From Bacillota bacterium (GTDB lineage: Bacteria > Bacillota_I > Bacilli_A > RFN20 > CAG-288): a stretch of 64,000 nt of DNA. Under the pieces are notes generated by a model. It saw only the letters and a list, made by a program, of their open reading frames with translations. It had not been told where the DNA came from and ran no database searches. Of the stretch, positions 7,830 to 39,559 are shown piece after piece. Positions within the stretch are counted from its first letter, which is position 1; each line of letters opens with the position of its first letter. The stretch covers positions 30,946 through 94,945 of the forward strand of contig JAEWSP010000018.1 in NCBI GenBank assembly GCA_023459795.1, read 5' to 3'. Position numbers and translations under genes: made by a program.

Positions 7830-8207
7830 ATGAGAACCGACTTCACGAAGATCTCCTTCTGGAAAAGGAATCCGGACAATGTTGCGGATATCCTGAGGCT
7901 GGAGATCGAATGCCTCGTCGACAAGACTTACCTTCTGAACGTAAACGGAAAAGACCGTTCCCTTCCCAAAGAGGAAGGAGACAAGCTTATAGAAGGTCTT
8001 ATTGCTCTGAAGCTGGGCGAGACGAAGAAGGAAGAGAAAGCCTACCTATACGAAGACAGGCCTCAGGACTACCGGATCAAGTTCTTCCTGGTCTTCTCCT
8101 ATCCGGAAGCCACTTATCTAGCCGTAAAGGGAATCGATCCCTTCGGCCAGAAGAACTACAAGGAGATCCAGGCTCTCTTTGCTCCGCTGTTCAAGAAACA
8201 AGACTGA
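7830..8207 (+). CDS. hypothetical protein
   Basis: 125 aa. The ATG directly abuts the upstream TAG. A strong terminator follows. Confidence 0.5.
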   Translation: MRTDFTKISFWKRNPDNVADILRLEIECLVDKTYLLNVNGKDRSLPKEEGDKLIEGLIALKLGETKKEEKAYLYEDRPQDYRIKFFLVFSYPEATYLAVKGIDPFGQKNYKEIQALFAPLFKKQD

Positions 8208-8240
8208 AAGAGGAAGCCCCCAGAAGGCTTCCTCTTTTTC
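8208..8240 (+). terminator. intrinsic terminator of the rsuA-like operon
   Basis: GAGGAAGCC-cccagaa-GGCTTCCTC followed by TTTTT. Confidence 0.8.
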
Positions 8241-8248
8241 AAGGCATT

Positions 8249-8289
8249 AAAAAGAGCCCGGTTACTTGATTCAACAATCAAGGCCGGGC
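8249..8289 (-). terminator. intrinsic terminator for a minus-strand transcript
   Basis: Minus strand reads GCCCGG-cc-TTGATTG-ttg-AATCAAG-taa-CCGGGC then UCUUUUU. It stands back-to-back with the plus-strand terminator. Confidence 0.75.
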
Positions 8290-8351
8290 CCTAACGTATC
8301 TGACCCATGGGTTGTTCCATATCTTGCCGCCCCTTCACCGCGGTTTCCGAA

Positions 8352-8572
8352 TCATCCCGGATCGTATCGCGGTCCCTTCTCGTATCGCCATATTTGCTCA
8401 TATCTCAGTCCCGAACCGTATCGCCGTATCTTAACGAATCGCCTTACCTGATCGTACCTCCGTATCGAATCATATCGCCGTACCTTATCGAATCGCCTCG
8501 TAGAATCTAACCGTATCGCCATCCCTTAACGTATCGCCGTATCGAATCGTACCTCCGTCTCTGCTCATATCG
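8352..8572 (-). repeat. 12 degenerate tandem copies of an 18-nt unit (minus strand consensus CGATAYGAT-NNG-ATA-CGG)
   Basis: Units were read directly: 8572-8555, 8554-8537, 8536-8519, 8518-8501, then a 5-nt insert CGAGG, then eight more units down to 8352. The pentamer TATCG occurs 10 times on the plus strand in this span. Confidence 0.85.
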
Positions 8573-9059
8573 TTGACTCGGCTAGTAACGGAACGTTGTC
8601 TCAAACCGTTTCGTACCGCCGTACCTTCTTGGCGAAACACCTTGCGTCCCGGACTTCGAGAAACTAAGACTCACTCATTGACTCGTCTTGCCTCGAAGCG
8701 ACGTAGCTCGTTCCGTCTTTCCGGTTCCACTCATCCGGAACCTTTCCGTATCTAAACAGTGCACTGGCTACTCGAAGACTGACCGGCTCGTCTTGCCTCC
8801 CGGATTTGTATCTCTGACCTTCTTCCCGTATTGCAGAGAAGACCTAAACCAGAGTGGGGATAACGCCTTTAGTCCCAGGAGAGCCGAAACAGCTAGCCTT
8901 CCCTTACCTGCTCGGATGGGTACCCGACGAAATAACATAGTCTCGAAGCGACTATATCATGGCCAATGATATACATATTGAGAGTATCCGACAAAAGGAG
9001 GAGATTATTGCATCCCTTCTAGAAATTTATAGATATTTGACTTCTAATAGGTTAACGAA

Positions 9060-9326
9060 TTAGAAGCTGTACTCAGAAGCTAACTTCTTGAAGCCGGCAA
9101 CTGCCAGATCTTCATCTGCTCCGTCGCAAACAATCTTGAGGGATTCCCCCTGGCTGATCGTCGAGATGGCGAAGACATTCATGATAGACTTGAGATCGCA
9201 CTCGTCACCATTCTCAAGAACCATCTTGATGTTGCACTTATGATGATTTGCTTCCTCTACCAGCTCTGCACTAGAGCGAGAAGAGAGACCATTCATGGCA
9301 TTCACTTTGATTTCGAATGTTTTCAT
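9060..9326 (-). CDS. HPr-family protein lacking the active-site His (Crh-like paralog)
   Basis: 88 aa with the HPr fold pattern. The canonical G-[IL]-H-A-R-P is replaced by G-L-S-S-R-S, while the regulatory serine motif K-S-I-M is retained. Confidence 0.75.
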   Translation of the reverse strand: MKTFEIKVNAMNGLSSRSSAELVEEANHHKCNIKMVLENGDECDLKSIMNVFAISTISQGESLKIVCDGADEDLAVAGFKKLASEYSF

Positions 9327-9350
9327 AGGTTTATATCTTTCTGCACCTTT

Positions 9351-9379
9351 ATTATAGAGAATTTGGTAAGCGTTTACAA
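9351..9379 (-). promoter_or_regulatory. sigma-A-type promoter of the HPr-like gene
   Basis: On the minus strand: TTGTAA (9374-9379), a 17-nt spacer, and TATAAT (9351-9356). Confidence 0.6.
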
Positions 9380-9763
9380 GTGAGGCGGGAAATTTAAGGT
9401 TTTTCTGTGCGTCTTAGCGTAACTGAAGGGTGGCTAACTTCAGGAAGCGCCCATCCAGTCTTTTGGCTTAGAGAGCTCTTCTTAGCTATTATAAGCTATT
9501 AATTACTTTTTGCGGTCATTTCTTTTTCTTTTTTTGCGTATTCTGACATTTTCTTTTTCTTATCGGTTCGTTCCTCATCTTTCCCCTTTCATTCTTAGGT
9601 CGTTTCTGCATGCCTTTTATATCCCCTTTCTTCTTCTTTTTGGTTGCAAATCCAATCAAAAGCCGTCATTTTCGCTGCTTCTATTTTCGTAGCGGATTAA
9701 TGCCTGTCGAAACAAAGCCTAAAGAGTTATCATATAAAGGCAAACGAAGGAGCTATTCCCCCA

Positions 9764-11119: not shown

Positions 11120-12830
11120 ATGAACAAGAACAACGGGCGCCGTCTAATGGCCTTCCTCAACGACCATCTTGCCAAAGTAGGGAAAAAGTATCTCTCCGTC
11201 TTCGATGCCTTCGGAAAAGAGCCGGAGAGAATCAGCGAGAAGACGCTTCTTTCCATCGTGAAGAAGAACAGGAATACGGAATTCGGAAGGAAGCACCATC
11301 TCGACCAGATCCATTCCCTTTCCGACTACCGGAAGGAAGTCCCTGTTTCGGACTACGAAGACTATAGGGAAGCAATCCTTAGGATGCAGGACGGGGGAAA
11401 GGATGTCCTCTTCCAGGGAAAACCGGTCTACTATACGGATACTTCCGGATCGACGGGGAAGAGCAAACGGATTCCTATCTCTGCTACCCAGCAGAAGGCA
11501 ATGAAGAAGAAGAAAGGAAATCCTCAGATCATCCCCTATCTGGAGAAGAAGAACGGATGCTATGACAGGAACCACCGGAAGATCCTCGCCCTGATGGCGA
11601 ATGCCGACATCACCTATACGAAGGACCAAACCCCGATCGGGGATGTCGTCTCCCTGATGCTTTCCAAGGTCAGCGGATTGATGGGGCTCTTCTTTACCAC
11701 CCTTTGGCAAGCCTCACCTCGAACGAGATCCATGACCGCCTCTATGTCCACCTTCTCTTCGCGCTTCCGGAAACGGACATCTATCTCATCATGAGTGCCT
11801 ATCTCAGCGAAACCTGCGGAATGGTGAACTATCTCTTCCAGAACCAGGAACTCTGCTCCATGATCTTGCAGAAGGGAAAATATCGGACTGCGTAAAGCTT
11901 TCCCCCGCCCTAAAGAAGGAACTTGAAAAGAAGCTTGTCCCGCACCCGGAAAGGGCTGAGGAACTAAAAGAAATCCTGGCTTCCGGAAGAGACGGGATCC
12001 TGACCAGGATCTGGCCTAGCCTCACCGTCGTAAGCGGGGTCGGCAGTACAGAGAACAGGCTGCGCCCGTATACGCTTCTTGTAAAAAGGTATCTAGGAAG
12101 CAAAGGACATATTTATTATGCCGCCTATAATTCCTCGGAATCCTTGATGGGGCTGGCAACGGACTACGACACCTTCCTCTATGCACCGGTCCTGGATATG
12201 GCTTATCTGGAATTCCTTCCCCTCGATGAGAAGGAACAGCCGATCCCGGGGAAGATCCTTTCCGTATCCGAGCTTACGGACGGGGCAAAGTACGAGACTG
12301 TCCTGACCAGCCTCTCCGGTCTCTATCGTTATAGGATGGCAGACATCGTCAAGGTCAGCGGACGGAAAGGAAGGCTTCCTCTATTCGAAATCCTAGGACG
12401 GAACAAGGTCCTCCTCGATGTCATGGGAGAGAAATGCACCTTCCATCAGGCAGATGACGCGATTGCCCTCCTAGGAGAAAAGATCGGGGAGAAGGAACAT
12501 CCCATCTATGCCTACTGTGCCACGGAAGGGAATAAGGAAAACCGGTATACCTTCTTCCTGGAAATCAAGGATTCCTCTTCCCTGGATCCGAAGAAGACTT
12601 CTCTCCTTCTGAAGGATTCCCTAGCCCTTGCTTCCCCGGATATCCGGTATGCTTTCGAGGAGGAAGGGCTCCTTCCTCCCGAAGTCTTCTTCGTGAAGGA
12701 AGGGACTTTCCAAAAATACCTCCACAATGAGAACCGGGAAGGAGAAGAAACAAAGCACTCCATCAAGGAGATCAAAGTCCTGAGGACCGAAGAGCAGAAG
12801 AAGTTCTTCAGGGATCATATCGAAGGATAG
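11120..12830 (+). pseudogene. GH3-family (acyl-acid amido synthetase-like) gene interrupted by two -1 frameshifts
   Basis: The N-terminal part (11120-~11700) carries FGRKH...YRKEVPVSDYEDY...YTDTSGSTGKSKRIP. The GH3-like sequence continues in a second frame (~11700-11880) and a third frame (11880-12830). The three pieces together span about 570 codons. Confidence 0.7.
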
Positions 12831-13929: not shown

Positions 13930-14017
13930 GTTTTTTCCTCTGTTAAAAGACCATTATAGCAAAGAAGAGCAACGGAAATGAGGTTGCCCTTGCCCCTCCC
14001 TTTTTGTATAATAGATT

Positions 14018-14100
14018 CACCATCGCGGTGTATACCGTCGAACTTGGTCAGGACCGGAAGGTAGCAGCCATAAGATCGGTGTCCACGTGCGGTGGCTTTT
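14018..14100 (+). ncRNA. ffs: small (4.5S-type) signal recognition particle RNA
   Basis: Conserved domain IV core GGTCAGGACCGGAAGGTAGCAGCC. The closing helix pairs CCATCGCG with CGTGCGGTGG. TATAAT lies at 14007-14012 and a T-run at 14097-14102. Confidence 0.8.
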
Positions 14101-14111
14101 TTATTAAAAGA

Positions 14112-39483: not shown

Positions 39484-39559
39484 GGATCTTTAGCTCAGTT
39501 GGTAGAGCAACTGACCCTTAATCAGTGGGCCAAGGGTTCGAGTCCCTTAAGATCCACCA
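39484..39559 (+). tRNA. tRNA-Lys (anticodon CTT) with encoded CCA
   Basis: Hand-folded cloverleaf. Acceptor GGATCTT/AAGATCC, D arm GCTC/GAGC, anticodon stem ACTGA/TCAGT with loop CCCTTAA, T arm AAGGG-TTCGAGT-CCCTT, discriminator A. Confidence 0.85.

Follow-up and report, generated by a model that had tools for sequence, protein, structure and literature searches.

A conserved non-coding element with phased pentamer repeats downstream of a Crh-like HPr gene in uncultured Bacilli

In Proteobacteria, RNAs that titrate proteins (CsrB, RsmZ, CrcZ and 6S, for example) have central regulatory roles. Bacillota have few known RNAs of this kind, and we know of none in this phylum that sponges CsrA. Here we analyse a 64,000-nt stretch of a Bacillota genome (the window; contig JAEWSP010000018.1), in which an array of tandem 18-nt units (8352-8572, minus strand) forms part of a conserved non-coding element of about 725 nt (8250-8974, minus) located directly downstream of a gene for a Crh-like paralogue of HPr. 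The array most likely provides many docking sites for an RNA-binding protein and would serve as a single-stranded, multivalent platform or sponge under carbon catabolite control, a reading suggested by sequence comparison to which we assign a probability of about 0.5. Among described systems, RosA of B. subtilis, described as the first RNA sponge to be confirmed in any Gram-positive bacterium (PMC8216469), and RsaI of S. aureus are CcpA-repressed sponge or regulatory small RNAs (sRNAs) (PMC8216469; 10.1101/278127). The trp leader, in turn, carries 11 (G/U)AG repeats that are bound by the TRAP 11-mer, for which (GAGAU)n is a classic synthetic ligand (PMC3064811).

On the minus strand, the read-out of the array was identical to the original listing, with twelve degenerate 18-nt units and a CGAGG insert after unit 4. 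Tandem Repeats Finder (TRF) recovered the 18-nt period at 8417-8562 (7.8 copies, 63% matches, score 86) together with a period of 54 nt at 8355-8497 (2.6 copies, 76% matches, score 160), and a repeat-family search grouped seven copies spaced 18, 36 and 41 nt apart (multiples of 18, with 5 added at the insert). A recount also agreed with the ten copies of CGATA (CGAUA in RNA) claimed for the 221-nt array. CGATAYG occurs nine times on the minus strand within 8363-8572 (~210 nt) and 35 times on both strands of the whole window, against 8.9 +/- 2.7 in shuffles, while the array contains 17 copies of GRKAYG, with 1.0 +/- 0.9 expected from shuffles; the shuffle controls of our scripts were mostly mononucleotide shuffles. 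Two extra hexamer copies (GGUACG GC GGUACG) lie upstream of the array at 8612-8625 (minus), and further single copies are dispersed along the RNA.

The units are about 55-90% identical in pairwise comparison, and their differences are not spread evenly. Columns 2 (G), 4 (U) and 7 (G) of the 18-mer are invariant across the 12 units, columns 12 (G) and 15 (A) are kept in 11 of 12, and column-wise variability is more uneven than under uniform decay (P = 0.004). A higher-order organisation had been proposed, in which units 1-4 resemble units 6-9. That particular duplication is weakly supported by offset-5 identities of 14, 14, 14 and 13 of 18, with 11-12 as the general mean, and TRF favours a 54-nt higher-order unit instead. 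Folding predictions give the array less structure than its shuffles (minimum free energy, MFE, -47.5 against -55.7 +/- 4.4; z = +1.87).

The array lies within an 852-nt gap without a credible gene, bordered by the 88-aa PTS-HPr family gene (9326-9060, minus) and by a convergent gene for a 125-aa hypothetical protein (7830-8207, plus). The minus strand of this gap is G-rich and C-poor. The conserved element starts ~85 nt past the stop codon of the Crh-like gene, at a short sequence that we call the 5' box, and runs to the U-tail of a terminator, with a G content of 0.31 and a C content of 0.20. This two-tier intrinsic terminator (8249-8291, minus) consists of an outer stem GGGCCCGG/CCGGGCUC, an inner hairpin ..AUU-GUUG-AAU.. 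and a conserved 3' GUAAC bulge, followed by UUUUU; a second hairpin at 8237-8207 is the terminator of the convergent 125-aa gene. Stem-loop, U-run and compensatory changes are all present at 8291-8249. In the 12 sequences compared, 12 base pairs are kept throughout (100% paired), of which 7 carry compensatory double changes, a result matched by 0 of 500 shuffles and lost in slid controls. The terminator covariance model, R1, gave one match per locus, on the sense strand only and at 38-71 bits, including four loci outside model building, and no other match in 258 kb. Together, the covariation and the strand-specific R1 matches fix the strand and the 3' end of the RNA product.

About 19 distinct homologous elements of 162-881 nt were found in metagenomes and metagenome-assembled genomes (MAGs) of uncultured Bacilli, directly 3' of an orthologous Crh-like gene and on the same strand (loci L009-L017, L033, L039, L050, L051, L063, L066, L068, L072, L094, L096, L097 and L100). 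The members were traced through HPr-like relatives in species-representative genomes, through protein look-ups, and through a metagenome search with the box ATCATTGGCCATGRTATA, for which 13 of 72 hits were true and the remainder were chance hits in coding DNA. Their shared architecture comprises the 5' box, (G)TATATCATTGGCCATG(A/G)TATAGTCG; a pyrimidine box, ACCCUUUC, with few repeats on its flanks; a variable middle with hairpins specific to subfamilies; a purine-rich repeat domain; and, in 16 members, the two-tier terminator with its conserved AUU-GUUG-AAU apex and GUAAC bulge. Other, simpler terminators occur in L011, L012, L013 and L072. The family is definable by the searchable 5' box and the terminator model. 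In two more distant loci, L098 and L099 (HPr 59-64% identical), the gene order is kept, the gap measures only 63 and 40 nt, and a plain terminator stands in place of the RNA. This synteny without the RNA indicates that the RNA is a clade-specific expansion of the 3' region of the gene and has no specific link to the convergent neighbours. We had considered these neighbours (the 125-aa protein, a 172-aa Zn-ribbon protein and an RluB-like protein) as partners, and rejected them because L098 and L099 share the synteny and lack the RNA.

The repeat domains of the relatives lack the 18-nt period and are built from tandem pentamers (such as GAGAU, GAGAC, GGGAU, GGGAC, GGUAC, GAUAC and GAGAA), which can be summarised as G-R-K-A-Y and which are chained with a G every 5 nt to form GNNANG sites. 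Runs of G..A. pentamers in perfect register reach 21 in L050 (125 nt), 16 in L014 and 11 in L015, against 6 at most in shuffles. G autocorrelation is positive at lags 5, 10, 15 and 20 in 14 of 14 RNAs tested, with lag-5 values of 0.06-0.25. In the window it is 0.19 at both lag 5 and lag 18, and an isolated lag-18 peak is seen in the window only; L033 also has 0.19 at lag 18, but within a broader series of peaks. The TRF periods tell the same story, being mostly 5, 10, 15, 25 and 45 in the relatives, with a few near-multiples (9/10, 16/15, 21, 26), and 18/54 in the window alone. GNNANG is enriched 2-2.6-fold over composition-matched shuffles in 12 of 12 members tested, and the whole window RNA contains 49 sites against 18.6 +/- 3.7 and 18.5 +/- 3.9 in shuffles.

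The 18-mer of the window resolves into the same elements, namely a C, three G-started pentamers (for example GAUAC GAUUC GAUAC) and GG, which places G at columns 2, 7, 12 and 17; the phase-5 G columns (2, 7 and 12) hold a single mismatch in 36 cells. Within the sites, G1 and G6 are near-invariant and A4 is strong, while R2, K3 and Y5 are degenerate. Species differ widely in their number of sites, which also varies within the species of the window, where one allele has lost 113 nt. In 8 of 11 members, the pentamer runs are predicted to be, on average, slightly more unpaired than the rest of the RNA. The enrichment of a phased motif in relatives that cannot be aligned implies selection on the motif rather than on the sequence, and we conclude that a short motif is probably under selection across the family and that, in the window species, a block of three pentamers was amplified as the 18/54-nt tandem repeat. 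By this comparison, the array is a species-specific expansion of the GRKAY/GNNANG repeat domain of the family. Overall, the alignments and motif counts show a conserved, terminated and apparently non-coding unit, whose body is a predicted low-structure, G-rich tract of phased GNNANG sites with a copy number that is plastic between and within species.

How the element relates to described RNAs can be judged feature by feature. It resembles CsrB, RsmY and RsmZ as a non-coding RNA with many copies of a short motif, a copy number that differs by species, an intrinsic terminator and presumed protein titration. Unlike in these RNAs, GGA/ANGGA is not enriched (6 in the array against 7.5 +/- 2.2; 18 in the whole RNA against 18.7 +/- 3.7), the GGGA type makes up only 6 of the 49 sites, the sites are not in hairpin loops, and the unit is a phased pentamer. 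Across the family, GGA is not enriched in 10 of 12 members, being clearly raised only in L066 and marginally in L100. The Csr/Rsm covariance models of Rfam found no match in the window, in 8150-9450 at E <= 10, or in the loci of 11 relatives. The original prediction had proposed a sponge-like array of protein-binding sites in the manner of CsrB; the array of sites fits all findings and is the reading we prefer, while the analogy to CsrB itself fails on the GGA count of 18 against 18.7 in shuffles.

The likeness to TRAP-binding RNAs lies in a single-stranded tract with a 5-nt register, and GAGAU and GAGAC are common in L033 and L050. Short-motif repeats at a spacing of about 5 nt in unstructured RNA are indeed found here, as seen in the lag-5 G signal, the TRF periods and the z of +1.87 for the array. 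The sites differ, however. The longest chains of (G/U)AG with 2-3-nt spacers have 1-4 triplets in the family and 3 in the window, no better than the 3-5 of shuffles, and TRAP-binding RNAs have about 9-11; the conserved bases are G1 and A4, not A2 and G3; and the window uses GAUAC and GGUAC. There is also no trp biosynthesis context, and the tryptophanyl-tRNA synthetase (TrpRS) gene, a conserved neighbour, is present also where the RNA is absent. CrcZ and CrcY, the Hfq/Crc sponges of Pseudomonas, are comparable as multi-site sponge RNAs whose expression is tied to carbon-source control, but their AANAANAA / (ARN)n motifs number 0 in the array and in the whole RNA, and both the phylum and the regulator differ (CcpA/cre, not CbrAB). 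RosA and RsaI share with the element the Bacillota host, a cre box at a promoter of the locus, G-rich elements and a proposed role in carbon-source adaptation (PMC8216469; 10.1101/278127). They are, in contrast, short RNAs that base-pair through few G-tracts and have no tandem phased repeats, and the cre box here belongs to the upstream Crh-like gene, whose promoter may or may not drive the RNA.

The large RNAs OLE, ROOL, GOLLD and raiA are similar in measuring several hundred nucleotides, in being lineage-restricted and in having a biochemical function that is not known. They are ornate, with many covarying helices, whereas the present element consists of low-structure repeats. The MFE of its 716-nt transcript is no better than that of shuffles (z = -0.07), which argues that it is not an ornate structured RNA, and Rfam 15 gave no match to it at the gathering score, in the window or in the loci of 11 relatives, nor at E <= 10 in 8150-9450. 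ToxI, the RNA of type III toxin-antitoxin systems, likewise combines tandem repeats with a terminator, but its pseudoknot-forming repeats are about 34-45 nt long against 5/18 nt here; no toxin gene accompanies the element, and in the window the genes that come next are convergent. We could not find this RNA family described. It is not in Rfam 15, and full-text literature searches, with incomplete coverage of subscription journals, yielded the TRAP, RosA and RsaI precedents and no paper on pentamer arrays of this kind or on an RNA that follows ptsH/crh.

The gene directly upstream of the element (9060-9326, minus) encodes an 88-aa HPr paralogue (Pfam PTS-HPr, E = 2.7e-15). Aligned to solved HPr and Crh structures, the protein has Ser in place of His15 (GLSSRS against GLHARP), and the Ser46 motif KSIMNV is intact. 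From the established biology of HPr and Crh, the protein might be phosphorylated by HPr kinase and serve as a co-effector of CcpA, as Crh does, but could not work as a phosphocarrier of the phosphotransferase system. We recovered 79 homologous protein clusters, of which the few with a named source are labelled Bacilli MAG. The subfamily also has a conserved NHHKC motif and two more conserved Cys (ENGDEC, and I/V-x-C in the last strand), a set that could form a metal or redox site on the HPr fold.

The promoter of the Crh-like gene (9351-9379, minus) has its -35 hexamer, TTGTAA, inside a cre-like box, TGTAAACGCTTACC (9378-9365), and its -10 hexamer, TATAAT, at 9356-9351. The pattern TGTAA(A/T)CGCTT(A/T)C overlaps the -35 in 16 of 17 loci examined, for which the window position 9365-9379 (minus) was compared with L009-L017, L033, L039, L050, L051, L063, L066, L068 and L072; in L013 a variant, TGTATTCGCTTAT, was recognised by eye. 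Most of the later loci (L094, L096, L097, L099 and L100) have the box as well. Where found, it deviates from the cre consensus by 0-1 mismatch, and TATAAT follows 17-18 nt downstream in most loci. The box suggests CcpA control, possibly autoregulatory, of a paralogue of the CcpA co-effector. The cre-like box at this promoter, the lost His and the kept Ser46 together link the locus to carbon control.

Between the stop codon of the Crh-like gene and the 5' box lie 19-115 nt, with terminator-like hairpins in some members (L051 and L063); the 19 nt of L017 are too short for one. The 5' box, ATATCATTGGCCATGATAT (8954-8972, minus), occurs once in the window and is near-identical in all family members. 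As RNA, it would form a perfect 7-8-bp hairpin, AUAUCAU[UGGCC]AUGAUAU. The sole common variant, A to G, retains a U.G pair; in L016 the loop length is altered and both arms are kept, and L009 has an insertion on each arm. Such a hairpin would suit 5' protection or processing and would be awkward for a dimeric operator. As DNA, the right arm contains TG-n-TATAGT (TGaTATAGT), which resembles an extended -10 whose variable base is the 'n'; no conserved -35 ahead of or within the box was found by eye. A separate feature of this region is an anti-Shine-Dalgarno-like tract, CUCCUCC/CCUCC, at 8997-9003 (minus) in the window and in most family members, 15-25 nt upstream of the 5' box in surroundings that are not conserved; it could pair with the G-rich repeats or with a Shine-Dalgarno sequence.

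Read-through of transcripts that start at the cre-controlled promoter of the Crh-like gene could produce the RNA, or it could have a promoter of its own within the 5' box; with either origin its level would follow carbon catabolite control. Its chained, largely unstructured GNNANG sites would then bind, titrate or organise many copies of an oligomeric RNA-binding protein, much as CsrB/RsmZ, CrcZ or the TRAP-binding trp leader do, but through sites of another sequence. The argument for a protein platform or sponge starts from the many-site, low-structure architecture, which is a hallmark of RNAs that bind many protein copies. The pattern of near-invariant G1 and G6, a strong A4 and degenerate R2, K3 and Y5 resembles recognition by a protein more than base pairing with a single fixed RNA. 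We also count as typical of sponge RNAs the plasticity in copy number, seen here in a strain with a deletion between direct repeats.

Several observations weigh against this reading. The motif fits none of the known site definitions of TRAP, CsrA and Hfq, and a tblastn search with these proteins gave no match in the 64-kb window, although the queries were approximate and 64 kb is too small a share of the genome for this to be informative about the whole. The short members of the family (162-183 nt) make do with few sites, so large numbers of them are dispensable. Tandem repeats of 5 and 18 nt can arise by slippage alone. The predicted unpairedness of the repeat runs exceeds that of the rest only modestly, and in the window it is not higher (0.40 against 0.39). 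The 5' end of the RNA can be read either as a processing hairpin or as a promoter or operator. Finally, all members come from metagenomes and MAGs, those with annotation being labelled Bacilli, Firmicutes or Mollicutes.

A bolder version, which we advance tentatively and consider possible rather than probable, is that the family is a new class of long bacterial non-coding RNA, in which 20-50 phased GNNANG sites sequester or scaffold an oligomeric RNA-binding protein, coupled to Crh-like/cre control, with a TRAP-like 5-nt register and a new specificity. If true, it would add a layer of protein-sponge long non-coding RNA to carbon control in Bacillota. A conserved element of hundreds of nucleotides, with phased pentamers and a link to Crh and cre, points to an unrecognised post-transcriptional arm of catabolite control, and the same features point to an RNA-binding protein of new specificity.

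The G-rich repeats might instead pair with C/U-rich RNAs, as RosA and RsaI do, and so act as a base-pairing sponge or regulator. Candidate partners would be C-rich sRNAs of the RoxS/RsaE type, pyrimidine-rich mRNA leaders and the anti-Shine-Dalgarno sequence. The precedents of CcpA-repressed, G-rich sponges and sRNAs (PMC8216469; 10.1101/278127), together with the cre box at the upstream promoter, lend this idea some appeal, as do the pyrimidine boxes of the family RNAs themselves (the ACCCUUUC box and the CCUCC upstream of the 5' box) and the two occurrences of GGAGGU in the array. The composition of the sites makes it unlikely, however. One fixed partner could not match all variants at R2, K3 and Y5, G and U at position 3 have no common pairing partner, GAUAC-type and GGGAY-type units stand side by side within the window species, runs of GGA and GGGA are not enriched in most members, and there is no known partner RNA.

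An equally modest share of our credence goes to neutral expansion, in which the conserved RNA, or a long 3' untranslated region, is real and the 18-nt array is a functionless product of slippage or unequal crossover. In keeping with this, the 18/54-nt periodicity is limited to the window species, a deletion allele exists, the short family members manage with few sites, and the units have diverged to the identities given above. What speaks against it is that unalignable relatives share the 5-nt G phase and the GRKAY composition, that the non-uniform decay spares the phase-5 G columns, U4 and A15 (P = 0.004), and that a single-nucleotide polymorphism (SNP) in one strain restores GAUAC from the degenerate GAUUC of unit 4. 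Association of the RNA with itself through palindromes (the UGGCCA loop, CCAUGG, GGAUCC and AACGUU) was also considered and set aside, as 6-nt palindromes are not enriched (146 against 139 +/- 11); 8-nt palindromes are mildly enriched (49 against 35 +/- 5), which is explicable by hairpin tips.

It is very improbable that the array acts as DNA, whether as an iteron- or centromere-like set of protein-binding sites or as curved DNA. Periods of 5, 10 and 15 nt do recall helical phasing, but all members show a strong and conserved strand asymmetry, with G well above C on the strand of the Crh-like gene, the position between gene and covarying terminator is fixed, and replication or partition genes are not adjacent.

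The possibility that the array is, or once was, coding is close to refuted. The 56-aa Arg/Tyr-rich open reading frame (ORF) on which it was based (8352-8522, minus, read from 8522 to 8352) does exist with the translation given; the AAGGG that resembles a Shine-Dalgarno sequence directly abuts its ATG, a placement that counts against coding. It stops close to the terminator, as had been noted, although the distance to the terminator stem is ~61 nt and not about 63 nt. The ORF is intact in the window and in most contigs of the same species, and its frame yields hexapeptides that look conservative. We compared contigs of the species from eight metagenomes (L001-L008), near-identical across the gap. 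In L003 the start ATG is AAG; in L006 a 113-nt deletion (6 x 18 + 5), flanked by two 13-nt direct repeats ATACGGCGATACG, has removed the start and six units and left the repeat frame without a start codon; and L008 carries a Tyr to Cys change. The seemingly conservative changes had been taken as a hint of selection on the peptide. Mismatches of the units to the column consensus, however, number 21, 18 and 12 at codon positions 1, 2 and 3, so third positions are the most conserved, the opposite of the pattern expected from coding selection.

The peptide is better understood as a by-product of the nucleotide motif. Its Arg, Tyr and Asp codons are the motif CGAUACGAU in one frame, R-Y-D-x-I-R is CGAUACGAUNNGRUACGG translated, and the switch between CGA and AGG/AGA codons amounts to C/A and A/G variation at unit positions 1 and 3. 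No ORF is conserved across the repeat domain in any of about 18 homologous RNAs, and the 56-aa ORF has no Pfam match. The more speculative idea of a multi-core peptide precursor fares no better. A precursor of the ribosomally synthesised and post-translationally modified type would have a translated, conserved ORF, repeated cores and adjacent modification enzymes, a combination that this locus does not present; the neighbouring genes encode HPr, TrpRS, a GH3-family protein, a pseudouridine synthase and hypothetical proteins, and no modification enzymes were found among them. The locus is an example of a tandem nucleotide motif that mimics a conservative-looking peptide repeat, and for annotation it means that the 56-aa ORF, which we judge to be no gene, is removed as a spurious small ORF.

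We give next to no credence to an antitoxin RNA of a type III toxin-antitoxin system, for which one could cite the order of repeats and terminator, along with a 165-180-aa ORF after the terminator in seven relatives, since that ORF is absent from the window and from most members, has no match to ToxN/AbiQ or to other PADLOC or Pfam entries, and the unit length is wrong. The ORF itself is of conserved sequence, lies on the same strand 3-78 nt past the terminator (<=45 nt in six) in L009, L013, L014, L015, L050, L072 and L100, and has as its best Pfam/PADLOC match PRiA4_ORF3, which is not significant (E = 0.029). It is unrelated to the 125-aa and 172-aa neighbours.

Beside the terminator, a mini-ORF at 8291-8320 (minus; ATG...MEQPMGQIR-TAG) ends in or at the 5' stem. 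In L009, L014, L033 and L050, the mini-ORF has a strong GGAGG 8-9 nt ahead of a TTG start and comprises 11-12 codons in total; its frame is kept over a 3-nt indel, and its stop lies within GGGCCUAG. Three of these four relatives have an ORF directly after the terminator. Translation of the mini-ORF might modulate termination.

Elsewhere in the window, the only Rfam matches are a small signal recognition particle RNA (14017-14101, plus; 57 bits) and one tRNA (39484-39556, plus; 71.5 bits). The TrpRS leader of ~280 nt (9480-9763, plus) is strongly pyrimidine-rich, with an AT skew down to -0.56 and tracts of the CCCCUUUC type; neither a T-box nor another Rfam element was detected in it. In L003 and L007, a gene for a 326-aa protein is inserted between the TrpRS gene and the HPr-like gene. 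The GH3-family gene (11120-12830, plus) is broken into ORFs of 224 and 228 aa in the window and is intact, at 560-570 aa, in L004, L005 and L008. The window, which equals L001 here, is one base short at ~11699/11700 and another at 11852, and the split gene would be either a strain-level pseudogene or an assembly error.

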